Shown here one piece after another: positions 3,035 through 48,316 of a DNA stretch of 64,000 nt. The notes below the pieces were generated by a model. It was not told where the DNA came from. It ran no database searches and was given only the letters and a program-made list of their open reading frames with translations. How positions within the stretch are numbered: position 1 is the stretch's first letter; each line of letters starts with the position of its first letter. Location of the stretch: sequence record MG383452; one strand, written 5' to 3'. The position numbers were made by a program, and so were the translations under genes. Origin of the DNA: Escherichia phage FEC14.

Positions 3035-3062
3035 AAAATACCCCCAATTTTGGGGGTATTTA
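3033..3062 (-). promoter_or_regulatory. late-promoter-like box (TATAAATAcccc) plus 5' hairpin ending in GGGGGTATTTT before ATG
   Basis: Minus strand reads ccgtgatTATAAATAcccccaaaattgggggtatttt-ATG; inverted repeat aaataccccc / gggggtattt. Confidence 0.45.
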
Positions 3063-25681: not shown

Positions 25682-25700
25682 AGCCCCCTTATTGGGGGCT
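25682..25700 (-). terminator. terminator hairpin downstream of tailspike 1
   Basis: agccccc-ttatt-gggggct with flanking T-tracts. Confidence 0.5.
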
Positions 25701-25706
25701 TGTATT

Positions 25707-27941
25707 TTAGATTGTTACGTTAGCAATACTTTCCGTGAACCAACCAGATGGAGTCTTAACTAAAGTAACCATCATCTTAGTTGCATAGTCTACCCTCAAA
25801 GCAGTAAAGGCTCCTGCCACATTAAAGTGGAATCTGTCCGTTACAGTAGGCAATGTTGTATCAGCACGTTTAAGCACTACCCCACCACCAGATGAATCAG
25901 AGATAACTGTCACACGCTGGCCCATATATCCACCGCTAAACCCACTAAGGGTAAGAGTAATACCGGAACCAGTGACTAATACAATATCAACACCATCTAC
26001 AGGAATAGATGCTAGGGTCTGAGTTGTAGTGTACTTATCAACAGCATTCTGACTAACCCCCAATTGCTGAATCTTAACTGGAGTACCGTTGCGGTTGAAG
26101 TTAATTAGGTTGGAGTCTTTGTTTACGTAAAAAGAGTAGTTAGGAATAGCGCCGGATGCGAGCATTGCTGTTTCATCTACTGACTCTAATTCTCGCAACT
26201 CTTTGTGATAGCGGTTGTAGTTTCTGTTCTGGATATACTTAGCATTCCATTGAGTAAACCAAATACCACCAAAACCACCTGATTCAGATGTAGAGATTAC
26301 ATAACCATCATCACCACCAGGCATTGATGCGATGTACCCAACAGAATCACTTGTGTTGATATCCCCAGTAGGAGCTAACCCCCAAGTAACTAGGTCACGA
26401 CTAATCCATACTCGGTAGTTAGTACGACCAATAGAATTATCACCTACACCATTAGCACAAGTAAACGCCCAAGTAAGAACACCATTAACCCCATCAAAAA
26501 TAGGAACCAGGTCACCCTTACTATCCGATGTAACTAAATCAGATAAGTGCTGCCAGTTCTTAAACTGATGATCACTGATATAGAATTTCTGAAGCCCTTT
26601 AAGGTCTGTGGTGTGGTAAGCACGAGAGTTCATCACCATACGACCATCCGGCAAAAGGTTCAGTCCGACTTCCCCACCAGATTCTTCGGAACTAAGTACG
26701 TAGTCCATGCTGTACTTAATGTCATACTTCATGATGGTAAGGAAAGAATCAACCCGTGAACCAGTGACGGTAGACACAATCATTGCCATCTTACCATCCG
26801 GTAAAACAACTGGTTTAGTTGGTGAAGTCCAGATAAAATCTGCCGTTGCTGGCTTAAGGGTAGCAGTAATGTTAGCTGGTGTACGCCATATAGTAGGAGC
26901 TTCCGCATCACAGTAGGTAACATATATCTGGGATGATGTATTAGGGTCATTGCCTGGCTGTGAGTATCCCCAACCCAACTGGCCTTTGCAGGAAGTAAAG
27001 TAACAGTATACCCGACCATCTACTGGGTTATACACAGCAGCAATCTCACCGTTCTGATACGTAGCCCCAAAGTTAGCTACCACTACCTTAGCCGACCAAG
27101 ACCACCCATTATCAATGGAGTATTTCATAACGATATTACATTGCTGATCTGGAGTAGCACCAATATCTGTATTGTTACCATGCAACTCATTACAGAAAAT
27201 CATCAGAGTACCATCACCAGTTTTAACAATCTGGGGCATACGGTAGAAGACGGTATCCGTAGGGTTAAGTTTATCAATAGCAACGTCTGGAGCAGACCAT
27301 GCTAAGTTTTTACCAGAGTGACGCTGAACGCCACGGATATGGTGATAAACATTAGGAATAACGGTTCTCACCATATTCTCTTGGTTCTGCCATGCAGCTT
27401 CTTCGGCAAATTCTTCTTCAATGGTTTTGCCATTAGCCAGTACTACCATGGATGCACCACTGGTACTGTTAAGCTGTTCCTTCAGATAAGAAGCACCCAA
27501 GCCAATCCAATTATCATCACTGGATGGTAAAGAGTTCTGAGGTACAACTTTAGGTAATGAACCATTCCAACGATACTGGATACCATTGTGGGTAAGTACA
27601 TCATTCTTTGTGGATACTATTGCACCAGTAGTAAAAGAACCAGGTAATACATTATATTCATTGCGTTGGGAAGCTAGTTCGCCCAGGTCTACAGAACCCC
27701 CAGAGTGTACAAGCAGAGCACTGGCGCTAAGGCTAATAGCCGTGGTTCCTGCTGGAATATCTACAGGCAAGGAATACGCTCTCTGTGTTTCCTTGTCATA
27801 AATAACCTTATATCCAGACAAGGACTGTCCTGATTTCGCATAAACGACTTCCGACTTTTTACACCCAAATTTACGAGCAATACTGTCTTTGTTCGATTCT
27901 TTTGAAGTAGAACCTTTTGGTTGAGCAAATTGCGGATTCAT
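25707..27941 (-). CDS. tailspike protein 1, with sialidase-like (BNR/Asp-box) domain
   Basis: N-terminus MNPQFAQPKGSTSKESNKDSIARKFG... is a module shared with the other tailspikes. Asp-box-like motifs YSIDNGWSW and SRDLVTW are present. Confidence 0.7.
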   Translation of the reverse strand: MNPQFAQPKGSTSKESNKDSIARKFGCKKSEVVYAKSGQSLSGYKVIYDKETQRAYSLPVDIPAGTTAISLSASALLVHSGGSVDLGELASQRNEYNVLPGSFTTGAIVSTKNDVLTHNGIQYRWNGSLPKVVPQNSLPSSDDNWIGLGASYLKEQLNSTSGASMVVLANGKTIEEEFAEEAAWQNQENMVRTVIPNVYHHIRGVQRHSGKNLAWSAPDVAIDKLNPTDTVFYRMPQIVKTGDGTLMIFCNELHGNNTDIGATPDQQCNIVMKYSIDNGWSWSAKVVVANFGATYQNGEIAAVYNPVDGRVYCYFTSCKGQLGWGYSQPGNDPNTSSQIYVTYCDAEAPTIWRTPANITATLKPATADFIWTSPTKPVVLPDGKMAMIVSTVTGSRVDSFLTIMKYDIKYSMDYVLSSEESGGEVGLNLLPDGRMVMNSRAYHTTDLKGLQKFYISDHQFKNWQHLSDLVTSDSKGDLVPIFDGVNGVLTWAFTCANGVGDNSIGRTNYRVWISRDLVTWGLAPTGDINTSDSVGYIASMPGGDDGYVISTSESGGFGGIWFTQWNAKYIQNRNYNRYHKELRELESVDETAMLASGAIPNYSFYVNKDSNLINFNRNGTPVKIQQLGVSQNAVDKYTTTQTLASIPVDGVDIVLVTGSGITLTLSGFSGGYMGQRVTVISDSSGGGVVLKRADTTLPTVTDRFHFNVAGAFTALRVDYATKMMVTLVKTPSGWFTESIANVTI

Positions 27942-27960
27942 AATAAGAATCTCCTGTTTT

Positions 27961-28000
27961 TCTCTAGTAAATACCCTCCGAAGAGGGGTATATTTTTAAA
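27961..28000 (-). promoter_or_regulatory. intergenic hairpin upstream of tailspike 1 (variant of the tailspike promoter-hairpin element)
   Basis: taccctc-cgaa-gaggggta hairpin, then AGGAG RBS and ATG on the minus strand. Confidence 0.35.
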
Positions 28001-30761
28001 TAGAAGAATCCAATATACGGTAACTAATTAACTTAGTAGGGTCTACAGGATTAATCAGGTTGTAGTACCGTGAAGCTACATAATCATTCTCAGAAGAGAA
28101 CATACCAACATACACTTTAGCACCTACACCAGAACAGGCATCCCCACCAGCATTGCTATCCGAGAAGAATGTTAATGAAGAAGTTAATCCGAATATAGAA
28201 TTAAATGGTACAGCTAAATAAGCGCCTCGGAATGACCGTCTGATTCTCTTACCCGTCTGAATATTAAGAATACTCCACCAGAAATATCCAGGTTTAGCAC
28301 CAATAGCTATATGATATGGCACACCACTTTGTAGTTTAAGGTCGTTAGGTAAATCCCCAGATAAAATTTGGGTTGTACCATCGCCCCCCAATAGCAAAGC
28401 AATTGTTTGTTTTCCAGAAGCGTCTATAACTAATTGAAGATGAAGACTGTTGGATGTATCACTAAACCCTGAACCAATGGCCATGAAGTTAAATACTTCA
28501 GCTCCAGATATGGTGGGTACTACAACAGCAGCCATGGTAATACCTTCTGGACCTGCTGTTCTTGAATACAGTAATTTATCTTTGTTGGCTTGTGATAGTC
28601 TCAGACCATTTACTTGCCCTACAGAAGATGGGACACTTACATAAACAGGTGTAGTGCTAACACCATCAAATGTAGGGGTCTCGTTCATGGTTTGCAAACC
28701 AGTCTTGGAATAATTAACCAATCCGTTAATGCTCAGGTCGGAATTGGTGGGGTTGATAATATTGTTATCACCAATAAAGTTAATGCCCATATAACCAGTC
28801 TCAACCACACCATTAATGGTGACACTACAATCATTAGACAGGAACTGAAAATTGCCTGCACTAGAGTTAGCACCTGAACCACTATTCGCGGCATAATTGA
28901 GTCCTACGAATCCGTTGATAACTGCATCACTTTTGTTAAATACGATGTTGTAGAAAGTGTTGTTAGCATTGATGCCGTTACGATTGGTGTTCAATCCGTT
29001 CATGGAAATTGAATATGACTCGCTAATCTCAATACCATTCCCGCCACAATCTTGTACCTCAATACCATTAATAACCATATTCTGGCTGTTATTAATAGTA
29101 ATGCCTGGAAACTGTCCTACTGTACCATAAGGTTGCCAGTTAGCCCAAATGAATTTACCGCCAATAATACGACCATTACCACAACCATCAAGAACTAGAC
29201 ATTGTTTACCGCAGGTATTAACCTGGATATTTGTCCAAGTCCAATCAGTAGTAGCACAACGGACACCCACCTGATTGATGTGGTTGACTAAAAGAGAATC
29301 TGTAGTAACACTAAAGTTACCACTATCAATATTTAACCCATATTCATCAAAACCTGCTATATGGACCTTAGAAATACACAAGTCCCGTCTTGGGTCTGCG
29401 GTAGTGTGGAACGGATAATCGGCTGAGAGACCTGAAGGAGTTTCTACATAGATACCTGTTGTGCCCGCAGTAAATGACGTGCCTTGTTGTGCACCTGTGC
29501 CATATACCCCAAAGGCGTCTAATACAATAAGGGAGCATGTATCTTTTATGGTAATACAATTCCCAGTAGCAGAAGGCAACTGATGCAACCTTGAGTAATG
29601 TAATCCAGACCCATAAATAGACGACGTATTATATTTTAACTGGATATTGCTAACGTAATGTACACCAGTTAATTGTGTGGCCTTACCACTATCCACACAA
29701 GATTGTACTGGAATAGTATCATCATTAGAACCACCCAAAGCACCAAACATGAATGGGTTAACTCTATCAGCATTAACACGTAACCATGCTGCGCCGCCAA
29801 CAGTTTTGATCACAGTACCGTTATTATCAGTCTTTCCTGTACCATCAATTAACGCACGGAATACCCCTCCACCAAGAAGAGTACCCGCAGTGTGTTGCTT
29901 AAGAATAATGCGTTGTCCATCCATAGTGGGTTCAGTATTCCTGAGATCAGCAACAGAATGGCATTCTCCAATATACTTGGCACCATCATTGCGCCCCAGA
30001 GTGTTTATCACATTAATAAATGAATCTTCTAAAGGCAACAAATCAACCTGCACATCACCTGGGTTGTAATTCAATTTCCCAGCAGATACAGAAGAAATGA
30101 CAGAACCATCAGGAATGGTTGGTAAACCATAACTGGTTTGCGTCGCTATATCATAAACAACTTTCTTCCCATCCAACAAAGATATGGTGTCCGTACTAAC
30201 GATGACTTCAGAGTCTTTTACATTAGCAGAACGGGCGATTTCTTGAATACTTCGGTCAAACGCCGGACTGATATTCGGTTGTTTAACAGACATTTCAGCG
30301 ACTACCCAAACGCCTGCAGTCAGTGCAGTTTGCAAAGACACTTTCCCTGTCGTGCTGTTATAGGAATATTCAATTTCGGGTGTTTTGTACTCGCCACCGA
30401 TATAAAGAGATTGGACACCATAGGATGTGAAATCAGGAGTGAACTCGGTTTCACCCCCTACGGCTTGAAATTTGTATATGCGGATACCTTTGGCTGTATC
30501 TTCTGGCGAAAGAATTTTATCGAATAAGCAATACACAACATCGCCTTTGGACAATGCGCGCCCGAGATTCAACGTATTTCCTTCGATTTCAAAGTTGTCT
30601 AACGGAACTTGCATACCACCGTTGATTGTGACTACGCCAGTGACAGGATAGAACGGCAAGGAAAGGAAAGTTTCTCCACCAACATTTGATTTATACGTGA
30701 AAGGAATCTGGTGGGGAGCTGTGATTACGCCGCCGAATAATTCTTCTACATTTCTGGTCAT
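27996..30761 (-). CDS. tailspike protein 2 (right-handed beta-helix-like)
   Basis: 921 aa from the ATG preceded by GGGGTATTTTCAA, matching the start context of the other tailspikes. Gly/Asn-rich repeats (GGKFIWANW...NGIEVQDCGGNGIEI) typical of beta-helix fibres. Confidence 0.7.
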   Translation of the reverse strand: MTRNVEELFGGVITAPHQIPFTYKSNVGGETFLSLPFYPVTGVVTINGGMQVPLDNFEIEGNTLNLGRALSKGDVVYCLFDKILSPEDTAKGIRIYKFQAVGGETEFTPDFTSYGVQSLYIGGEYKTPEIEYSYNSTTGKVSLQTALTAGVWVVAEMSVKQPNISPAFDRSIQEIARSANVKDSEVIVSTDTISLLDGKKVVYDIATQTSYGLPTIPDGSVISSVSAGKLNYNPGDVQVDLLPLEDSFINVINTLGRNDGAKYIGECHSVADLRNTEPTMDGQRIILKQHTAGTLLGGGVFRALIDGTGKTDNNGTVIKTVGGAAWLRVNADRVNPFMFGALGGSNDDTIPVQSCVDSGKATQLTGVHYVSNIQLKYNTSSIYGSGLHYSRLHQLPSATGNCITIKDTCSLIVLDAFGVYGTGAQQGTSFTAGTTGIYVETPSGLSADYPFHTTADPRRDLCISKVHIAGFDEYGLNIDSGNFSVTTDSLLVNHINQVGVRCATTDWTWTNIQVNTCGKQCLVLDGCGNGRIIGGKFIWANWQPYGTVGQFPGITINNSQNMVINGIEVQDCGGNGIEISESYSISMNGLNTNRNGINANNTFYNIVFNKSDAVINGFVGLNYAANSGSGANSSAGNFQFLSNDCSVTINGVVETGYMGINFIGDNNIINPTNSDLSINGLVNYSKTGLQTMNETPTFDGVSTTPVYVSVPSSVGQVNGLRLSQANKDKLLYSRTAGPEGITMAAVVVPTISGAEVFNFMAIGSGFSDTSNSLHLQLVIDASGKQTIALLLGGDGTTQILSGDLPNDLKLQSGVPYHIAIGAKPGYFWWSILNIQTGKRIRRSFRGAYLAVPFNSIFGLTSSLTFFSDSNAGGDACSGVGAKVYVGMFSSENDYVASRYYNLINPVDPTKLISYRILDSSI

Positions 30762-30770
30762 TTGAAAATA

Positions 30771-30810
30771 CCCCATAAAGGATTTGCCAATATGGGGTAT
30801 TTAGGCTGAA
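30771..30810 (-). promoter_or_regulatory. late promoter CTAAATAcccc fused to a 5' hairpin whose 3' arm GGGGTATTT precedes the ATG
   Basis: Minus strand reads cagcCTAAATAccccatattggcaaatcctttatggggtattttcaaATG; inverted repeat taccccata / tatggggta. Confidence 0.5.
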
Positions 30811-30866
30811 CTAATAAAATTTATAATAAGATCCCCCCGCTTTTGGCGAGGAGGGATGGTTGTTAA

Positions 30867-32999
30867 TCATATCAATCCGTAAATGACATTGTGTATTGCG
30901 ATACCACCAACAATAGAGGAAACATTGAAATTAATTTCAGCTTTGTAAGCTCCTGGCGGAACGCAATCCACCAAAGCATAAAAGTTGAACGTGTTTCCTA
31001 CTGGGATGTTATATCCTATGGAATCCGCGACAGCATTTCCTTGCTGGTCCAGGAATCTAATTGATGCCAGGGTGGTGGTTGTATTTTTAGCCCAAAAACC
31101 AAGTTGAAAATAACGCCCAGGCTCACAGTCAATGATTGTCTGGGTGAAATTAGCCGCTGCACCCACTGATGGTACGGATAAGACAAAAGAAGTTGAAAAC
31201 ATTAAATCATTAGGGACATCATTTCCTACAGTAGCGGTGACAACGCCGGATCCAGTTTGTGACAGCGCCCAGTTAGATATATTATTAAACTGTCCTGAAC
31301 CGTTACTAATACTGTTTATATGAGGGCTTACAATGCATCCTAAATCCCAGTTACTTGTGATAAATCCTGCGCGTGGATAGCAACCTCTAGACATTACTTT
31401 TTTACTTAATCCGCCTATCAACTGCCTTGTGGCAAATCCAGTAGCAATCGTTGTATTCCCATAGAGTGGTAGCGAACAATTATTTAGAATAACAACCCCA
31501 TCCCCGTTGTTTACAATAGGTACTGTAGAATAATCATTTGGCAACAGTATCGTCGAATCACTGATGCTTAATCGTGAACTACCATCCACAGTAAACCCAA
31601 CGAAACTCTGACCTGGTTGATACTCAATGTTACCGTTTGTGAAAACCATAGTTGCGTTATCAGATAACGCGACAACAGGGTCAAAATATCCTGATTTTTT
31701 ACCTGCTGGCAGAGAGCAGCTATCGAATATAAATTGACCATTAACAAACGTGAAAGGTCCACCGTTGTCAACCATCCAACAATGATTAAATTTTATAACC
31801 TCACCGGAATTCGCTGGTGAATTGAAAATAACAGAATTTGTAAAACTTCTGGACAACGTACATTTATCAAAAAGAATACGATATGCATTATCAAGAAACT
31901 CAATTCCGGCAGTTGAGATAAACCCGCAATTAGATATTCTTAACTCTGAGACTTCTCCACTGGTAGAACCACCGATCGCCAATTTCCTGGTCCCTTTTCC
32001 AACAAATGACACTCCAGTCATTAACGCAGTTGCGTTAATTACATCTCTATTGGTGTAATCCGTGTCTGTATTAACAATGGTTAGATAGTAGCCGCCCGTT
32101 GCAGATGCAGATTCTATTAGAGTACATTTATTTTTTCCAATAAGTGCACCTTTTGCTATATCAAAAATAATCGGTGTTGTTATCTCACCAGAAACAGGGA
32201 CTACACAGTCAAATCCGACGGCATTTATTTTATTGATGAATATAGCCAAATCTCCGGTTCCTGTATAACCAGCTTCGTACACATCCACCACACCGTTGAA
32301 TAATTTCCTTTTCCAAACGACACCATTGCCTTGGAAAGTAACGATATTATCTACCACAGTATCTGAGTTAACAGCCACCATAACACCGCCACCAAGATTA
32401 AACCCGTCAACATACGAATCAAGAATTATAGAATCACCAATTAATCCTGCTATTGATGATAATTCAGAAACTGATGATACGGTTCCTATATAAGATAAGC
32501 CATTCGGTTTATTTAAATTACTTTTCAGAGATGCAACACCAACACTCAACCATGCACCTAAACCAACGCCACCAGATGTTTCAGGTGTTGAGCCAGCATC
32601 GACAGTTTTAGGAAGTGAACCATCCCATCGATATTTTTTATCATCGTGAACAAGAAGTTCATTTTTCACATTAATGATATGGCCGAAATTAAAAGAACCA
32701 GGTAAAGTCACATATTCTTCGCGGCTTACTGCTAATTCCCCAAGGTCAACAGAGCCAGCGGAATGAGTGAGGATGGCTTGTTCGTTCAGGCTTATCGCAG
32801 TCGTTCCTGAAACAATACCCGAAGGAAGAGAATAAGCCCGTTGGGTAGACTCATCATAAATTACTTTAAATCCACCGAGATCAATACCGACAGTGAAATA
32901 AATGACTTCGTCTTCTTTGACACCGAAATTTCGAGCGATAGATTGTTTGTTAACTTCTATGGAAGTGGAGCCGCGTGGTTGATTGAATTGAGAAATCAT
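30867..32999 (-). CDS. tailspike protein 3
   Basis: N-terminus MISQFNQPRGSTSIEVNKQSIARNFG... is paralogous to the tailspike 1 N-terminal module; beta-helix-like body. Confidence 0.7.
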   Translation of the reverse strand: MISQFNQPRGSTSIEVNKQSIARNFGVKEDEVIYFTVGIDLGGFKVIYDESTQRAYSLPSGIVSGTTAISLNEQAILTHSAGSVDLGELAVSREEYVTLPGSFNFGHIINVKNELLVHDDKKYRWDGSLPKTVDAGSTPETSGGVGLGAWLSVGVASLKSNLNKPNGLSYIGTVSSVSELSSIAGLIGDSIILDSYVDGFNLGGGVMVAVNSDTVVDNIVTFQGNGVVWKRKLFNGVVDVYEAGYTGTGDLAIFINKINAVGFDCVVPVSGEITTPIIFDIAKGALIGKNKCTLIESASATGGYYLTIVNTDTDYTNRDVINATALMTGVSFVGKGTRKLAIGGSTSGEVSELRISNCGFISTAGIEFLDNAYRILFDKCTLSRSFTNSVIFNSPANSGEVIKFNHCWMVDNGGPFTFVNGQFIFDSCSLPAGKKSGYFDPVVALSDNATMVFTNGNIEYQPGQSFVGFTVDGSSRLSISDSTILLPNDYSTVPIVNNGDGVVILNNCSLPLYGNTTIATGFATRQLIGGLSKKVMSRGCYPRAGFITSNWDLGCIVSPHINSISNGSGQFNNISNWALSQTGSGVVTATVGNDVPNDLMFSTSFVLSVPSVGAAANFTQTIIDCEPGRYFQLGFWAKNTTTTLASIRFLDQQGNAVADSIGYNIPVGNTFNFYALVDCVPPGAYKAEINFNVSSIVGGIAIHNVIYGLI

Positions 33000-33005
33000 G
33001 ATAAT

Positions 33006-33045
33006 ACCCCATAAAGGATGACCAATATGGGGTATTTAGTCTGAA
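33006..33045 (-). promoter_or_regulatory. late promoter CTAAATAcccc plus hairpin plus GGGGTATTATC-ATG
   Basis: Minus strand reads cagaCTAAATAccccatattggtcatcctttatggggtattatcATG. Confidence 0.5.
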
Positions 33046-33069
33046 CTAATCAAATTTATGAACAAAGGT

Positions 33070-33100
33070 ATAATAAGAACCCCGCCGAAGCGGGGTTCTT
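33070..33100 (-). terminator. terminator hairpin downstream of tailspike 4
   Basis: gaaccccgccgaagcggggttc followed by a T-rich tract. Confidence 0.55.
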
Positions 33101-33101
33101 A

Positions 33102-36100
33102 TTATGATTCTATAATTTTATAGGATAGAGAAACATTACCATCAACTGGAGCAGCATCGATTCCTGTCGGTCTTGTTGCGGTCTTAACCATGACACCAGC
33201 GATAGTTTGTCCAGCAGTTGCACCAATATACTTAGAGCAATTTACTGAATAAAATAATTGCCTGTATTCAATATTACCTTGAACCTCACTTAGAACAACA
33301 TAGGCCGCACCAGCATTAACTGAACAGTTTGTGTGTATGTTTACCTTCTCCCCTGTGGACACTCTGAACATATGACCACCATCTGTAGATATTCCAGAAA
33401 GGCCGATTAGTGATAATGTGCCACCTGCTTTAATAAGGAAACTACTACCAGAATTTGCTTTTAAGCTCCCAGGACCTTCAAACACCACCATCGGCAGTTC
33501 TGTGTTAGATGTAATAACTGATTCTCCAGCATTAAGGTAAACACTTTTACACCTAAAAAGCTGGCATATTTTCGCAATATTAGTTAATTCACGTATAGGT
33601 TTAGTTCCATTGGTCCCCCAGTTATAATTATTACCATTCACTGGGTCTATATAAAGAGTATCTGCTTTTACACCAACAACATCTTTGATATAGAAAATGT
33701 CACCAACTTCCCCAAATTGGAATTGACTTCCCATGTTTGTACAGTCCAGTACCAATGTGGGGTAATTACCAGTACCCCTAACGAGTTTTACGCCACTTAC
33801 TGGCATTTGTCCTCTAACAACATTTCTGGCAGTTTCTGGGCAGTTTTTAAGGAAGTACATACTATCTAGATCAGGGTCTTGTCCTGAAAGACCCACTCCT
33901 GACAACGTAACATCCGAACTGGTATTGATAAGATAGAAACTATGTTTTTTCTTCCCGCCAGATGACTCAATATGGGGTTTATCAACCATAAATAAACCAT
34001 AGGAATCAGTATCTCGACCAGCGTGAACAAAGTCGAAGGATGCTTGTTCGATGATTGGGCTATTAAACTTAACCTCTGAACCTGCAAACTGAGTGACGGC
34101 AACATCACCTACCTCAGTAAATCCTGCTGGTTTATACACCGCTTGTTCCAACTCACCATTAGTATTACCAAGGCGAGAAATGTAAGCATTGTTTACAGCA
34201 GCACCGCCATTAGAGTCAATGAACACTGCGCCCTGAGTTTTATACAGGATACGTAGATTTTCATGAACAGAACCCCATGATGCTGACTGCAACAATCCTA
34301 CTCTTGGCAGTCTTGCTGTTGTAATATCGCTCCCTGTATTCTCCCCAATGGATAACCCTTTTGTAGTGCAACCTGCCCCACCTATCCATTTAACACCAAC
34401 CTTTACACCTGGTGCTGTAATCAGGTTAAGGTTACTAATATCAATTTTTCTGGCACATGTTACAGCGTCCCCATTATCAATATCTAACCCAGTAGGATAA
34501 TAATCTACATCTTTATTGAGTTTGTATGAACCATCAGGCTGTTTACGGTACACCATTAAGCTGATTGCTGCTGTATTCTTATCTACTGGGTCATAAAACA
34601 ATCCTTGCTTACACTCACGAGTAAAAAAGTTTGGTGCAGGCATTTCAATTGAAACACCTGGAGGTATGTATAGCGTCTCTGTGAAACGGTATAACTTGGT
34701 CAGGTTAATTTTTACTGCTACTTTCTCCATGTACGAGTTTACAGCCGCAGCATCAGGAAGTGTTTCAGGAACGTTGTTTATGTCTGAAAGCATTTCTTTT
34801 AATTTTGAAGTATCGTCAGCTATTCCGTCGCCTACCGCATTGTACTGTTCAGGTGTGCGTACAGTTAATACATTATTTAGCGTCCCGTGCGGATGAACTC
34901 CAATCAACGATCCATTACCGTTTGCCAGTTGTGTTCTCAATGAGGCATCACCAACACTAATCCATGCGCCAACACCAACGCCGCCTGTTGTCGCAGGAGT
35001 TGAGCCAGGAGCAACGGTTTTAGGAAGTGTACCATCCCAACGATACTTTCCATCCGTGTGAGTGAGTAATTCATTTTTAACATTGATGACAGCACCAGAA
35101 TCAAATGTCCCAGACAATGTTACGTATTCTTCACGAGATACAGCTAATGCGCCCAGATCAACACTACCAGCAGAATGCACAAGTACAGCCGAAGAACTAA
35201 GGCTGACTGCCGTGGTTCCAGTCGGTAGCTCTGGAATAAAATATGATCTCTGTGTTACTTTATCATAGATAACTTTATATCCACTTAACACAGCACCAAC
35301 ACTAAAATAAATGACCTCTGTATCTTTAACATTGGTTACACGAGCCACTTCCCGCAAAGTATAATCAATTTGATTATAGATGTTTGGCGTTCCATTGATA
35401 ATTACAACAACTTCATCCTCCGCATCCAGTTCTTGCGCAAGAGTGATTTTACTGGTTAATGGATCGAATGTGAACCCCAGATTTTTATACTGGCGACTTC
35501 CGTTTATATCAATGGCCGGAACATCATCAACAACGATGTCTAGCGTTATTTCGGTTTCGCCACCGATAGCGGATCCGCCATTGTAAATCCAGGTGATTGC
35601 AGAAGCGCCCGAACCCCCGCCGCCAGTGCCCAATTGAATAGGAGTATATTCAATCACCTGAAGTTCTGTGTTGGCTGGCAAAGAAGGACTGAAAGTGATT
35701 ACATTCCCATCTAGTGAATATTTGGATTCCGCAAGACGTTTTCCGTCAGTATACACGTCCACGATTGTTGGTGGAGTATTGAGAGTGACAGCACTTGTTT
35801 CAGACGCCAAAATTTGTGTAAAGATTTCACGACTGTAGACACGGCCTTGGCCAAGACCGACGCCGGATGTGATAACCCAACCTTGTTCAGGTCCAGACCA
35901 AGTGAACGTTGCTGATACGTTATCAGTTGTTATAGCCATGTCTTCAGTGGAGCCATACAAATTATTTCCAGAAGGAGACACGGTCAATGGGTAAGTGGCA
36001 AATTTCCCATAAGCATCACAAATAGTAACGGAATCCCCAATACGCGTAGGGGAAGGGAGAACCACTGTAGATGTCCCTGTGGTATTATTAATGAGATATC

Positions 36101-36392
36101 CACGACCTTCTAACAAATTGCTAGAGGGAGCGTGAGGGAGCGTTTCCCAGCGTATTCCACCACCCCCCAAAGACAACCAACCACCGTTTTCGTAATAACC
36201 TTCAAATTCATCACTATCAGGATTGTAACGCACAGAAGATGGAAGACCTGTAACTTCAGTATCTTCAGGAAATGTCATTACGGCACCAGGGGAATGCTCA
36301 ATAGTGCCGGAGTTGTTGAAGCCTTTTATGTTCGAAGACTCAGAAGTTTCTAAACCCAAAGGGAAAAGAGGCTGTGTTGGTTTGTTGGCCAT
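33102..36392 (-). CDS. tailspike protein 4 (1096 aa) carrying an internal copy of the shared tailspike module
   Basis: Residues about 335-480 (VKDTEVIYFSVGAVLSGYKVIYDKVTQRSYFIP...) repeat the N-terminal module of tailspikes 1 and 3. Confidence 0.7.
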   Translation of the reverse strand: MANKPTQPLFPLGLETSESSNIKGFNNSGTIEHSPGAVMTFPEDTEVTGLPSSVRYNPDSDEFEGYYENGGWLSLGGGGIRWETLPHAPSSNLLEGRGYLINNTTGTSTVVLPSPTRIGDSVTICDAYGKFATYPLTVSPSGNNLYGSTEDMAITTDNVSATFTWSGPEQGWVITSGVGLGQGRVYSREIFTQILASETSAVTLNTPPTIVDVYTDGKRLAESKYSLDGNVITFSPSLPANTELQVIEYTPIQLGTGGGGSGASAITWIYNGGSAIGGETEITLDIVVDDVPAIDINGSRQYKNLGFTFDPLTSKITLAQELDAEDEVVVIINGTPNIYNQIDYTLREVARVTNVKDTEVIYFSVGAVLSGYKVIYDKVTQRSYFIPELPTGTTAVSLSSSAVLVHSAGSVDLGALAVSREEYVTLSGTFDSGAVINVKNELLTHTDGKYRWDGTLPKTVAPGSTPATTGGVGVGAWISVGDASLRTQLANGNGSLIGVHPHGTLNNVLTVRTPEQYNAVGDGIADDTSKLKEMLSDINNVPETLPDAAAVNSYMEKVAVKINLTKLYRFTETLYIPPGVSIEMPAPNFFTRECKQGLFYDPVDKNTAAISLMVYRKQPDGSYKLNKDVDYYPTGLDIDNGDAVTCARKIDISNLNLITAPGVKVGVKWIGGAGCTTKGLSIGENTGSDITTARLPRVGLLQSASWGSVHENLRILYKTQGAVFIDSNGGAAVNNAYISRLGNTNGELEQAVYKPAGFTEVGDVAVTQFAGSEVKFNSPIIEQASFDFVHAGRDTDSYGLFMVDKPHIESSGGKKKHSFYLINTSSDVTLSGVGLSGQDPDLDSMYFLKNCPETARNVVRGQMPVSGVKLVRGTGNYPTLVLDCTNMGSQFQFGEVGDIFYIKDVVGVKADTLYIDPVNGNNYNWGTNGTKPIRELTNIAKICQLFRCKSVYLNAGESVITSNTELPMVVFEGPGSLKANSGSSFLIKAGGTLSLIGLSGISTDGGHMFRVSTGEKVNIHTNCSVNAGAAYVVLSEVQGNIEYRQLFYSVNCSKYIGATAGQTIAGVMVKTATRPTGIDAAPVDGNVSLSYKIIES

Positions 36393-36397
36393 TTGTA

Positions 36398-36436
36398 ATA
36401 CCCCTAAATGTATTCATGTCATCTAGGGGTATTTAG
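36398..36436 (-). promoter_or_regulatory. late promoter CTAAATAcccc plus hairpin plus GGGGTATTACAA-ATG
   Basis: Minus strand reads aaaaCTAAATAcccctagatgacatgaatacatttaggggtattacaaATG. Confidence 0.5.
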
Positions 36437-43775: not shown

Positions 43776-43851
43776 GGCCCCGTAGCTCAGTGGTTAGAGC
43801 AGTCGACTCATAATCGATTGGTCGCTGGTTCAAGTCCAGCCAGGGTCACCA
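43776..43851 (+). tRNA. tRNA-Met (anticodon CAT)
   Basis: Folds by hand into a cloverleaf: acceptor ggccccg/cagggtc, D-arm gctc-agtggtt-agagc, anticodon loop ctCATaa, T-arm gctgg-ttcaagt-ccagc, 3' CCA encoded. Confidence 0.8.
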
Positions 43852-43858
43852 CTAAATA
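43852..43858 (+). promoter_or_regulatory. CTAAATA late-promoter-like box on the plus strand
   Basis: ctaaataaacc immediately 3' of the tRNA-Met CCA end, about 35 nt upstream of the small ORF ATG at 43889. Confidence 0.35.
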
Positions 43859-43888
43859 AACCAGTTGTTCAATAAACAATTGGTGAGT

Positions 43889-44089
43889 ATGATGAAAACG
43901 TTCGGTGATTTTCTTACTGAGTGGGATGGTCTCGCTACCGACAACAAAGAGATTGTTGAGTTTGTTGAAAAGCGAGGCGATAAGTGGGTTGTCCTTGACC
44001 ACACCAAGACTAAAGTTCTTGGGACACATGACACCAAAGCTGACGCGGACGCCCAATTAAGGGCGATCGAAGCGAATAAACATAGTTGA
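43889..44089 (+). CDS. small hypothetical protein
   Basis: ATGATG start with GGTGAG upstream; lies between two tRNA genes. Confidence 0.4.
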   Translation: MMKTFGDFLTEWDGLATDNKEIVEFVEKRGDKWVVLDHTKTKVLGTHDTKADADAQLRAIEANKHS

Positions 44090-44102
44090 AGGGTTCTATA
44101 TT

Positions 44103-44237
44103 ATGAAGAATATTTGGGTGGTAATTTCCAACAGAATTCGCGCTAGTTGGGAAGGTCGGATGGTGAGCATCAAGAACGGGTCTCATCCAAAAACTTACGA
44201 TCGTTATGATCCTGCCCTGGGTCTTCATGCAGAATAA
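44103..44237 (+). CDS. small hypothetical protein (about 44 aa)
   Basis: Short ATG ORF from my own reading of the plus strand; below ORF-track cutoff. Confidence 0.2.
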   Translation: MKNIWVVISNRIRASWEGRMVSIKNGSHPKTYDRYDPALGLHAE

Positions 44238-44263
44238 AGAGTGTTTACGAAAGTAAGAATAGA

Positions 44264-44339
44264 GACGATGTAGTTCAGTCGGTAGAACGGCGGTCTGTTA
44301 AATCGTATGTCGCAGGTTCAAGTCCTGCCATCGTCGCCA
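44264..44339 (+). tRNA. tRNA-Asn (anticodon GTT)
   Basis: Acceptor gacgatg/catcgtc pairs perfectly; D-arm gttc-agtcggta-gaac; anticodon loop ctGTTaa; T-arm gcagg-ttcaagt-cctgc; CCA encoded. Confidence 0.8.
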
Positions 44340-45006
44340 GGATTATGTCGGGCCTTGCAGGATGGAATAGAGATCCTGTTTTGATGTCCAGGGGAGTCTA
44401 GTATTCAAAGTGAACATATGATAGCTTTGAAGAAACACAAACTAAAGATTGGGGTTTGAATCCCCCGCCCGACGACAAACAATGGGTGTGAAACGAAAGC
44501 AAGTAAGCACGAAGTACGCGAACGACAAGTTCTCTCGAGCGACGTCTAATAGCCGAACGGAATCTGAACCCGACGAAAGTAACGCCCACCAAATTCAGAG
44601 TGTAGAGGCTACAGTAGTGCGCACCTCACGGAAAGCTACACCGGACACTCTGATACAAATCTATCACTGCGTGGATTAGCTGAGGAAGGATGGCCGATGT
44701 CCTCAAGCGTGGCCCAGCACGTGGTGGTAGACCAAACACAGTAAGCGTTGCAGCCAGCTGTGTATAAAATGGGGTGACTCCACATCGAAAACGATGCCCC
44801 AACTTCCAGAAATGGTCGGGCGCGAAGCCTGTAAAGTTCCAGGAGATCGAACCAGAAGGCACTGGTGCCAGTTAACCAATCGGCGCTGATAAGCGCGGGG
44901 AGTTGGGCTACGGCAGATCAAATGCACAATCGGGTGTGAAGCCCGTCCTAATTTCGCGGGAGCCATAGGGGTTGGCCAGTAGCTGACTGCTCTCCCGCTC
45001 CAAATT

Positions 45007-45095
45007 GGAAGGTTGCCCGAGAGGTTTAAGGGACTCGACTGCTAATCGAGTGGGGCTTTTAGCCCCCGAAGGTTCGAATCCTTCACCTTCCGCCA
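45007..45095 (+). tRNA. tRNA-Ser (anticodon GCT), long variable arm
   Basis: Acceptor ggaaggt/accttcc; anticodon stem ctcga/tcgag with loop ctGCTaa; 17-nt variable arm tggggcttttagccccc; T-arm gaagg-ttcgaat-ccttc; CCA encoded. Confidence 0.8.
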
Positions 45096-48283: not shown

Positions 48284-48316
48284 CTAAATACCCCATACGA
48301 CCAGTGTGGGGTATCT
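48284..48316 (+). promoter_or_regulatory. late promoter CTAAATAcccc plus hairpin plus GGGGTATCT-ATG (plus-strand copy of the tailspike element)
   Basis: atcCTAAATAccccatacgaccagtgtggggtatctATG. Confidence 0.45.

Follow-up and report, generated by a model that had tools for sequence, protein, structure and literature searches.

The DNA module repeated in the tailspike genes of Escherichia phage FEC14 codes for the tailspike head domain

Tailspike heads and exchangeable bodies

In the tailspikes of P22-like podoviruses a short neck links a conserved N-terminal head-binding domain to an enzymatic body that is hypervariable and exchanged horizontally (summary in PMC3966878). The tailspikes of phage FEC14 follow the same logic of a conserved attachment domain, a short neck and an exchangeable body, but they have another fold and other partners: gp10-like XD domains of sister tailspikes would be the docking sites of the FEC14 heads, of which a single genome carries several paralogous versions that belong to a branched complex.

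For phage CBA120, which has the same cluster and gene order as FEC14, structures of the heads of TSP1-4 are available (PDB 4OJ5, 6NW9/5W6F, 5W6H and 6W4Q) (Chen et al., 2014, PMC3966878; PMC8825819), with D1 at residues 12-96, D2 at residues 97-154 and the neck at residues 155-165 (PMC3966878). In CBA120 the heads are N-terminal in TSP1 and TSP3 and follow XD3 in TSP4, and TSP2 has TD1 only. The TSP1 head binds XD3 of TSP4, the TSP3 head is required for binding to the TSP2:TSP4 complex, and ultracentrifugation has established both the binding of heads to XD3 and their trimer formation (PMC8825819). The CBA120 tailspikes are also the subject of Plattner et al. (2019), as cited in PMC8432352.

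The repeat of the head domain and its link to the swapping of host-recognition domains are already known from the model of Sørensen et al. (2021, PMC8432352), which deals with the same phenomenon in the same genome. Bodies were found there to be shared across tailspike positions in Kuttervirus, with FEC14 among the examples: its TSP3 is the sole TSP3-3, similar to TSP4-2 and predicted to be specific for O78, and its TSP4 is TSP4-7, similar to TSP1-1 and predicted to be specific for O21. Protein alignments led to the proposal that exchange takes place at GTTAVSL, where TD1 ends (aa 65/391) (PMC8432352). Engineered chimeras joined after Ala157 of TSP3 are functional (PMC9965104), and tsp exchange and deletions have been obtained in the laboratory (PMC11414711). 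The present analysis demonstrates the domain identity of the repeat, the divergence of its copies and the positions of the junctions. Only the last of these is an addition, and a small refinement of PMC8432352: two junctions resolved at the DNA level lie approximately 57 codons beyond GTTAVSL, in the YRWDG(S/T)LPKTV codons of TD2.

The tailspike gene cluster of FEC14

The DNA analysed is a stretch of 64,000 nucleotides of sequence record MG383452 (the window). By ORF calls, four tailspike genes on the minus strand, TSP1-4, fill positions 25707-36392 (Table 1). The gene order (VrlC-like gene, TSP1, TSP2, TSP3, TSP4, orf215-like gene) is syntenic with the reference genomes, including orf210-213 of CBA120 at approximately 95% identity, and among the 250 records found by megablast CBA120 covers 79% at 95.2%. 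This synteny and the high identity to reference genomes make the locus a member of the four-tailspike clusters of Kuttervirus. The true start of TSP2 is probably 5 codons downstream of the ORF start, at 30761, as in the annotation of orf211 of CBA120 (921 aa).

FEC14 differs from CBA120 in the placement of its bodies and is itself a product of body exchanges: the O78-type body is on TSP3 (in CBA120 on TSP4) and the O21-type body on TSP4 (in CBA120 on TSP1). TSP3 is a natural chimera that joins a TSP3 head to the O78-type body of PhaxI/CBA120 TSP4. In DNA, the heads of TSP3 and TSP4 share 93-98% identity with their CBA120 counterparts, whereas the TSP1 head is of another subtype, with approximately 60% DNA identity to that of CBA120 TSP1, and is joined to a sialidase-like body.

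Table 1. Positions of tailspike genes, head-module copies, junctions and hairpins in the window
Feature	Position	Strand	Description and basis
TSP1 gene	25707-27941	-	ORF, 744 aa; protein identical to FEC14 ATW66765.1 (exact protein look-up); head module, then GH33 sialidase-like body (sialidase matches in PDB and NCBIfam)
TSP2 gene	27996-30776	-	ORF, 926 aa; O157-type body (literature); 94-95% identity to CBA120
TSP3 gene	30867-32999	-	ORF, 710 aa; protein identical to FEC14 ATW66763.1
TSP4 gene	33102-36392	-	ORF, 1096 aa; protein identical to FEC14 ATW66762.1; anchor-XD1-XD2-XD3, head module, body of CBA120 TSP1 (Salmonella O21) type (sequence comparison)
Module copy 1, TSP1 head	27447-27941	-	TD1/D1 ~aa 1-96, TD2/D2 ~aa 97-154, then start of neck; tblastn, PDB matches, PF18668, motif positions
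GTTAISL codons, copy 1	27729-27749	-
YRWNG codons, copy 1	27561-27575	-
Module copy 2, TSP3 head	32493-32999	-	Repeats, blastn/blastp, PDB, PF18668, motifs, tblastn
GTTAISL codons, copy 2	32787-32807	-
YRWDG codons, copy 2	32619-32633	-
Module copy 3, internal TSP4 head	34908-35387	-	~aa 336-495; repeats, blastn/blastp, PDB, PF18668, motifs, tblastn
GTTAVSL codons, copy 3	35199-35219	-
YRWDG codons, copy 3	35031-35045	-
Module copy 4, partial (TD1 only), TSP2	29973-30281	-	~aa 166-268; blastp, tblastn, PDB 6W4Q
TSP3 crossover interval	32619-32627	-	9 nt, TGGGATGGT, gene nt 373-381, W-D-G of YRWDG; informative sites
TSP4 chimera transition zone	34972-35081	-	Gene nt 1312-1421; blurred over ~110 nt
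Hairpin ATACCCC..GGGGTAT	30768-30800	-	Ends just before probable TSP2 start
Same hairpin	33004-33035	-	Directly upstream of TSP3 start
Hairpin of same type	36398-36432	-	Directly upstream of TSP4 start

Copies of the repeated module

The initial annotation described a DNA module of approximately 450 bp, repeated in TSP1, TSP3 and TSP4 and regarded as a paralogous protein module still recognisable in DNA. The repeat is real by blastn, by repeat search and against codon-shuffled controls, its paralogous nature is supported, and the coordinates given for it were right to within approximately 40 nt. Of the strings then quoted, ccatcccaacgatac is present within 35019-35078 of the TSP4 copy, where it reverse-complements the YRWDG codons, and gtacaagcagagcactggc is present within 27672-27762 of the TSP1 copy. 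The sole omission was a diverged fourth copy in TSP2, which is of half length and visible as protein alone (34-41% identity by blastp/tblastn); at the DNA level it gave no blastn match at E<1e-3. When the whole window was searched by tblastn with the heads, the three copies and the partial TSP2 copy (34-35% identity) were retrieved, and no further head copies were found.

The three copies are 64-68% identical in DNA and 49-62% in protein, with blastn E values of 1e-30 to 1e-55 (TSP1/TSP3, 64% over 403 nt, E 1e-37; TSP1/TSP4, 66% over 268 nt, E 3e-30; TSP3/TSP4, 68% over 401 nt, E 1e-55) and blastp E values of 4e-39 to 6e-55. The repeats are in register, with 244 nt at 74% between TSP3 and TSP4 and with three-copy families of 91, 60 and 44 nt at 63-84%, spaced by 5058 and 2412/2409. 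In a dot-plot of 25700-36400 against itself (90-nt), the three diagonals expected at offsets 2409/2412, 5058 and 7467/7470 are the only ones to appear. Local alignment scores between the copies are 84-137, whereas codon-shuffled controls score 11.3-11.6 +/- 1.3-1.6 (z 47-79) and alignments of the copies to 31 further 480-nt segments of these genes reach 14 at most. No exact run is longer than 16 nt (TSP1/TSP3), 11 nt (TSP1/TSP4) or 13 nt (TSP3/TSP4).

The module as tailspike head

The repeated module most likely codes for the tailspike head D1-D2 (TD1-TD2) and the start of the alpha-helical neck, and serves in the branched four-tailspike complex of Kuttervirus; to this explanation, including a role of the module in body exchange, we give a probability of about 0.85. 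Residues 1-167 of TSP1 match the CBA120 heads by phmmer (4OJ5, 5.5e-48; 6NW9/5W6F, 2.3e-50; 5W6H, 1.6e-40), and the TSP1 head copy matches PDB entries 4OJ5, 6NW9, 5W6H and 9D84 with E values of 1e-40 to 1e-52. The match to the CBA120 TSP2 structure (6W4Q) is confined to TD1, residues 161-242 of 6W4Q aligning with residues 7-89 of the TSP1 head. PF18668 (Tail_spike_N, TSP1/Gp66 N-terminal domain) matches TSP1, TSP3 and TSP4 over the TD2 part with 34.6, 88.9 and 81.2 bits, all above the gathering cut-off of 25. Its model comprises approximately 70 residues (TD2), whereas the FEC14 module adds TD1, and TSP2 gave no match to it, as expected of a TD1-only protein. The heads lie at aa 1-165 of TSP1 and TSP3; TSP4 has its head behind the anchor and XD1-3, and in TSP2 the first half of the head (TD1) follows XD2-XD3. 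By homology to the heads of CBA120 TSP1, TSP3 and TSP4, the module is an Ackermannviridae tailspike head.

Since the heads of TSP3 and TSP4 are 93-98% identical to their CBA120 counterparts, we infer that the FEC14 head forms a trimer and binds XD3 of a partner tailspike. The head would be a trimeric knob with which, as known from the literature on docking, TSP1 and TSP3 may attach their spikes to XD3 of TSP4 and TSP2; in TSP4 it sits between XD3 and the spike body, and TSP2 retains TD1 alone. The module's reason for being is structural, namely the assembly of the branched complex, and it is not a recombination device. Assembly depends on the head, which is why its conservation among phages is high for a given position; being conserved and ending at a domain boundary, it is a fixed handle beside which receptor-binding bodies exchange.

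Age of the copies

Identities among the copies at the three codon positions are approximately 0.6, 0.66 and 0.41, and with dS of 1.3-1.8 and dN/dS of 0.22-0.36 the synonymous sites are near saturation. As paralogs the copies are old and subject to purifying selection, and their DNA similarity of 64-68% is a by-product of this selection on an old domain, with no sign of recent duplication or gene conversion. In identity matrices that cover 26 heads of 10 genomes, the grouping of TD1 and of the TD2 core follows position and not genome. Same-position identity is 93-100% within TSP3 and within TSP4 (TD2 core of TSP4, 91-100%). TSP1 heads split into separate subtypes, those of FEC14 and CBA120 being only approximately 60% identical, and therefore conservation by position holds for TSP3, for TSP4 and within the TSP1 subtypes, not for all TSP1 heads. 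Between positions the identity is 57-84%, a range that covers TSP1/TSP3 for TD1 and all three positions for the TD2 core, TD1 values with TSP4 being out of register and unusable. Copies within one genome are not closer to each other than same-position copies of different genomes.

Junctions of natural recombinants

Upstream of the TSP3 crossover interval all informative sites are of the Se-E-TSP3 type and downstream all are of the PhaxI-TSP4 type; PhaxI is 99.7% identical over positions 30780-32633 of the window, that is, over the TSP4-type part downstream of the crossover. Phage ST2 has three TSP genes, of which one is a hybrid of a TSP4 head and a TSP3 body. It changes parent inside a 16-nt tract just 3' of YRWDG, CACTTCCTAAAACTGT, and is from there on 99.94% identical to TSP3 of AR2819; the tract includes the longest exact TSP3/TSP4 match of the FEC14 genome. 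The TSP4 transition zone is CBA120-TSP4-like upstream and CBA120-TSP1-like downstream, and for want of close parents it could be narrowed no further. In sampled megablast rows for the TSP3 head, similarity stops at the end of the head (32533 or 32537) in 48 of 60; in those for TSP4 it stops at the end of the head (34933-34946) in 46 of 60 and at the XD3/TD1 border (35341) in 8 of 60. Natural exchange junctions thus lie inside or at the edge of the module.

In the identity matrices the stretch past YRWDG tracks the spike body, not the gene position. The TD2 core of CBA120 TSP1 is 78-81% identical to all TSP4 heads in the 10 genomes, whether TSP4-7 or not. In our reading, GTTAVSL, at which the published similarity starts, reflects the general protein similarity of TD2 among the paralogs.

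How receptor-binding bodies may move

Efficient substrates for exchange are the heads of relatives at the same position (93-100% identical for TSP3 and TSP4). Co-infecting relatives would thus exchange bodies frequently, through ordinary homologous recombination of the copies at one and the same position, and rare exchange between different positions might proceed via an identity island of approximately 30 nt coding for YRWDG(S/T)LPKTV in TD2; this mechanism we infer from end products only. Tentatively, since we consider the odds to be somewhat against it, this short stretch, and neither GTTAVSL nor the whole 450-bp module, may be the true hotspot at the DNA level. If so, 9-16 nt of identity would let a receptor-binding body move among the TSP1, TSP3 and TSP4 positions, could also fuse two tailspike genes with the loss of one, and would provide a predictable and engineerable breakpoint for the evolution of host range in Ackermannviridae.

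It had been supposed that the three copies within one genome, being direct repeats in neighbouring genes, recombine with each other and thereby swap receptor-binding domains. Bodies shared across positions do occur, the ST2 fusion resembles a repeat-mediated deletion, and in laboratory constructs a duplicated stretch of tsp led to recombination or gene loss (PMC11414711), although these events used identical engineered XD2 sequence and not diverged heads. Part of the supposition stands, in that the junctions are in the module. It should be noted, however, that direct repeats delete the intervening DNA instead of swapping it, deletion and fusion being what is seen in ST2, and that the two sharp junctions are in islands of 9 and 16 nt. 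Efficient exchange of the RecA or UvsX type usually needs roughly 20-30 nt of perfect identity, a length reached by none of the exact runs between the FEC14 copies. With 64-68% identity, near-saturated synonymous sites and runs of 11-16 nt, the copies are therefore ill suited to classical homologous recombination across 450 bp, and we consider such recombination within one genome unlikely. That gene conversion among the heads of one genome maintains their DNA similarity is most improbable and largely refuted by the identity matrices: despite 76% identity over 400 nt between TSP1 and TSP4 of CBA120 (66% in FEC14), grouping by position is strict in the 10 genomes, within-genome pairs never exceed 84%, and dS is high. 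The 3' end of TD2 is common to different positions in several genomes, which is because body swaps carry the end of TD2 along.

It is also conceivable, if doubtful, that the junctions gather at the end of TD2 solely by selection against domain-breaking chimeras, with illegitimate joining and no part for microhomology. Engineered neck fusions are functional (PMC9965104), both sharp junctions are within D2, where the paralogous halves are interchangeable, and unrelated phages without this head have bodies of 80-88% nucleotide identity to the O78 body, which shows that bodies are also acquired where the heads are not homologous. But purely illegitimate joining would seldom preserve frame and register, and both sharp junctions coincide exactly with the longest identity tracts common to the parental paralogs, TGGGATGGT and CACTTCCTAAAACTGT; only these two junctions are sharply resolved, and the real parents may have had longer common identity than the relatives compared. 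Selection for foldable chimeras could fix surviving junctions at that spot regardless of DNA homology.

Hairpins flanking the tailspike genes

The regions upstream of TSP2 and TSP3 are 95% identical over approximately 60 nt. The hairpin upstream of TSP2 (Table 1) is a flanking element outside the head module.

The tailspike gene cluster

Exact matches of three of the four ORFs to FEC14 proteins identify the cluster as the tailspike genes TSP1, TSP2, TSP3, and TSP4 (see table). In a megablast search the cluster region matched 250 phage records, almost all of the genus Kuttervirus (Ackermannviridae), the best match being orf210-213 of phage CBA120 (79% coverage, 95.2% identity). The same contiguous combination of four tailspikes was found in no record of the phage collection, FEC14 itself being absent from the megablast matches there. 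The 926-aa TSP2 sequence is absent from the protein collection, and the CBA120 orf211 annotation (921 aa) is 5 codons shorter. At window 30761-30776, the first ATG of this ORF is within the 3′ arm of an upstream hairpin; the start codon actually used is probably the ATG at 30761.

Coordinates of the tailspike genes, the module copies and the intergenic hairpins in the window
Feature	Position	Strand	Remarks
TSP1	25707-27941	minus	744-aa ORF; protein identical to FEC14 ATW66765.1 (exact-sequence look-up)
TSP2	27996-30776	minus	926-aa ORF
TSP3	30867-32999	minus	710-aa ORF; protein identical to FEC14 ATW66763.1 (exact-sequence look-up)
TSP4	33102-36392	minus	1096-aa ORF; protein identical to FEC14 ATW66762.1 (exact-sequence look-up)
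Module copy, TSP1	27447-27941	minus
Module copy, TSP2	29973-30281	minus	half-length
Module copy, TSP3	32493-32999	minus
Module copy, TSP4	34908-35387	minus
Hairpin copy	3038-3059
Hairpin copy	30768-30800
Hairpin copy	33004-33035
Hairpin copy	36398-36432
Hairpin copy	48288-48314

The repeated module

The initial annotation had described a paralogous module of about 450 bp, recognizable at the DNA level, in TSP1, TSP3, and TSP4, and this is borne out by repeat search, blastn, and controls. A self dot-plot of 25700-36400, the check proposed with the claim, gave the three expected diagonals and no others, and the repeat search of the window found families in register, spaced 5058 and 2412/2409 nt apart. 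In blastn, TSP1 and TSP3 aligned over 403 nt with 64% DNA identity (E 1e-37), TSP1 and TSP4 over 268 nt with 66% (E 3e-30), and TSP3 and TSP4 over 401 nt with 68% (E 1e-55); the three copies are 49-62% identical as proteins over about 160 aa. Chance similarity is ruled out by the controls, since local alignment scores between the copies were 84-137 vs about 11 ± 1.5 after codon shuffling, and 31 other pieces of the same tailspike genes scored at most 14. TSP2 carries a half-length copy that is 34-35% identical and detectable at the protein level only (tblastn, whole window), no DNA-level copy being found in TSP2 at blastn E<1e-3; tblastn revealed no further copies in the 64-kb window.

The repeated module is the tailspike head. 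Residues 1-167 of TSP1 match the solved CBA120 structures of TSP1 (4OJ5, 5.5e-48), TSP3 (6NW9, 2.3e-50), and TSP4 (5W6H, 1.6e-40), the match to CBA120 TSP2 (6W4Q) being limited to residues 7-89, and PF18668 (Tail_spike_N) exceeds its cut-off in TSP1, TSP3, and TSP4. The CBA120 TSP1 structure shows a head made up of D1 (12-96) and D2 (97-154), then a neck helix (155-165) and a beta-helix body (PMC3966878); in later papers D1 and D2 were renamed TD1 and TD2, of which TSP2 has only TD1 (PMC8432352). According to ultracentrifugation, the head of TSP1 binds XD3, one of the domains ahead of the head in TSP4, and TSP3 needs its head to bind the TSP2:TSP4 complex; the TSP4 head is not needed for partner binding, since all complexes still form with the headless TSP4 fragment N335 (PMC8825819).

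The copies are old paralogs held by protein-level selection, as follows from their identity by codon position (about 0.6, 0.66, and 0.41), from dS values of 1.3-1.8 with dN/dS of 0.22-0.36 (Nei-Gojobori, core), and from their grouping: in a set of 26 heads drawn from 10 genomes, both TD1 and the TD2 core cluster according to position, i.e., by the TSP gene that carries the head, and never by genome. Heads at the same position are 93-100% identical within TSP3 and within TSP4 (TD2 core of TSP4 91-100%), and the usable identities between positions are 57-84%; TD1 comparisons with TSP4 were left out as out of register owing to a one-codon indel. Recent duplication or gene conversion is ruled out by the high dS and by the clustering by position.

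Some observations on head diversity may be added. Other TSP1 subtypes have in common with the window only gene nt 1-150 and the intergenic region (megablast). An apparent same-position TSP1 breakpoint at window 27540 (blastn vs CBA120, S117, Se-E, and PhaxI) was dropped as an alignment-extension artefact, because in a sliding comparison the FEC14 TSP1 head is only about 60% identical in DNA to that of CBA120 over its whole length. A 1057-aa TSP4 subtype (AR2819, L006 8825-11998; ECML-4, L007 9151-12324) has neither GTTAxSL nor YRWxG, and its similarity to the window ends at 35341, the XD3/TD1 border (8/60 sampled records). Some TSP4 proteins are thus headless or have another type of head. In the Pectobacterium podophages CB1, CB4, and Nepra, about 100 nt are 80-81% identical to window 32526-32627, at the 3′ end of the coding region for TD2 and in the same stretch as the junctions described below.

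Junctions between heads and bodies

It had also been proposed that the repeats are substrates for homologous recombination that would swap receptor-binding domains. The link to body swapping stands; the substrate and the within-genome outcome as stated do not. The longest exact runs between the copies in the FEC14 genome are 16, 11, and 13 nt, and the 450-bp repeats are therefore weak substrates for classical homologous recombination. Exchange is nonetheless linked to the module by genome comparison. FEC14 TSP3 proves chimeric when compared with Se-E TSP3 and PhaxI TSP4: the informative sites are all TSP3-type to gene nt 372 and all TSP4-type from nt 382, which places the crossover within TGGGATGGT (window 32619-32627), the W-D-G codons of YRWDG. 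Past the crossover the gene is 99.7% identical to PhaxI TSP4. FEC14 TSP4 similarly resembles CBA120 TSP4 up to about nt 1310 and, from about nt 1421, CBA120 TSP1.

Salmonella phage vB_Sen_ST2 (L005, OR710291.1) has three tailspike genes instead of four. A hybrid gene for 1024 aa (L005 6678-9752) has the anchor, XD1-3, and head of TSP4 in front of an AR2819-type TSP3 body; the body of TSP4 and the head of TSP3 are gone. The hybrid is TSP4-type to nt 1360 and AR2819-TSP3-type from nt 1377, with 99.94% identity to AR2819 TSP3 over 1710 nt from there on. The crossover falls within CACTTCCTAAAACTGT, directly 3′ of YRWDG. It is the deletion or fusion product expected from direct-repeat recombination. 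PhaxI also has a three-TSP arrangement, without TSP3, and here the deletion could have occurred either via the head repeats or via the 95%-identical repeats upstream of TSP2 and TSP3.

Two natural cross-position junctions, i.e., between different TSP genes, those of FEC14 TSP3 and of ST2, fall within one 25-nt span in the YRWDG-LPKTV codons of TD2. The 90 nt past YRWDG track the spike body and not the gene position: for example, the window TSP3 is 100% identical there to PhaxI TSP4, and AR2819 TSP3 is 99% identical to ST2 TSP4. In a spread megablast sample, similarity to other kutterviruses stops at 32533/32537 in the TSP3 head in 48/60 rows, and in the TSP4 head at 34933-34946 in 46/60 rows and at 35341 in 8/60. 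Efficient substrates in co-infection would be the same-position TSP3 or TSP4 heads, which are 93-100% identical between phages. BSP101 and S8 were rejected as carriers of the FEC14-type TSP3 chimera: they have the O78 body on their TSP4, and their 98% coverage is made up of two joined pieces.

Exchanged bodies and published precedents

The TSP1 body (25707-27431) has relatives among GH33 sialidases and BNR/Asp-box proteins (PDB 8GN6, 8FEB at 1.1e-9), and the comparison with NCBIfam neuraminidase gave 8e-10, far below the cut-off. This relatedness in sequence suggests that its fold is probably not the beta-helix reported for CBA120 tailspike bodies. The FEC14-type TSP1 subtype occurs in 14 records at 99-100% identity. 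The O78-type body of TSP3 (window 30867-32633) shows 78-88% nucleotide identity to spike or fibre genes of unrelated E. coli phages, several of them isolated on O78 hosts (PD06/PD114, vB_EcoS_PJ16, ASO78B, AVIO78A, Bp4, and EC1-UPM), and this body therefore moves between phage families.

It should be noted that the feature is already known. Bodies common to TSP1-1/TSP4-7, TSP3-3/TSP4-2, and TSP3-1/TSP4-8 were described by Sørensen et al. (2021; PMC8432352), who also proposed a conserved head site as the recombination site and listed FEC14 as the sole TSP3-3 phage (predicted O78) and as a TSP4-7 phage (predicted O21). Chimeras engineered with the fusion just past the head are functional (PMC9965104), and exchange and deletion of tsp genes have been observed in the laboratory (PMC11414711). 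Our sole point of difference from the published account is the site: that of Sørensen et al., derived from protein alignments, is GTTAVSL at the end of TD1, whereas the junctions resolved here at the DNA level are in TD2, about 57 codons further downstream. CBA120 TSP1 resembles all TSP4 heads in its TD2 core (78-81% identity), TSP4-7 or not, which would explain why similarity at the protein level seems to begin before the junction.

Tailspike bodies set the O-antigens and hence the E. coli and Salmonella serotypes open to these biocontrol and diagnostic phages. That the conserved head is a handle for natural and engineered body exchange with the branched complex kept intact is established knowledge; the increment is the position of two junctions in the 25-nt span, which could help in choosing fusion points and in recoding repeats so that engineered phages are more stable.

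Intergenic elements

A palindromic hairpin, ATACCCC-(loop)-GGGGTAT, is present in 5 copies in the window vs 0 expected (100 shuffles), with z-scores of −3.3 to −8.7 when folded as RNA. Three copies end 3-6 nt ahead of a tailspike start codon (that of TSP3, that of TSP4, and the probable one of TSP2), and the G-run in the 3′ arm is at the position expected for a ribosome-binding site; TSP1 has a plain AGGAG instead. The hairpin may serve in translation or processing of the tailspike mRNAs. No known RNA family was found at the intergenic hairpins, the Rfam matches in the window being three plus-strand tRNA genes for Met (CAT), Asn (GTT), and Ser (GCT) at 43776-45095, and a scan of the cluster for sigma-70 promoters was not above shuffled expectation.

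The regions upstream of TSP2 and TSP3 (30763-30824 and 32999-33059) are 95% identical over about 60 nt, hairpin included, and form by far the best-conserved direct repeat of the cluster; recombination across them would remove the whole TSP3 gene. A GC-rich terminator-like stem-loop (33070-33105, 30833-30853, 27974-27987) is present after each tailspike gene, with 16 pairs in the case of TSP4, and after each stem-loop comes the motif TCTTATTAT, whose 4 occurrences in the window are all in the tailspike cluster.
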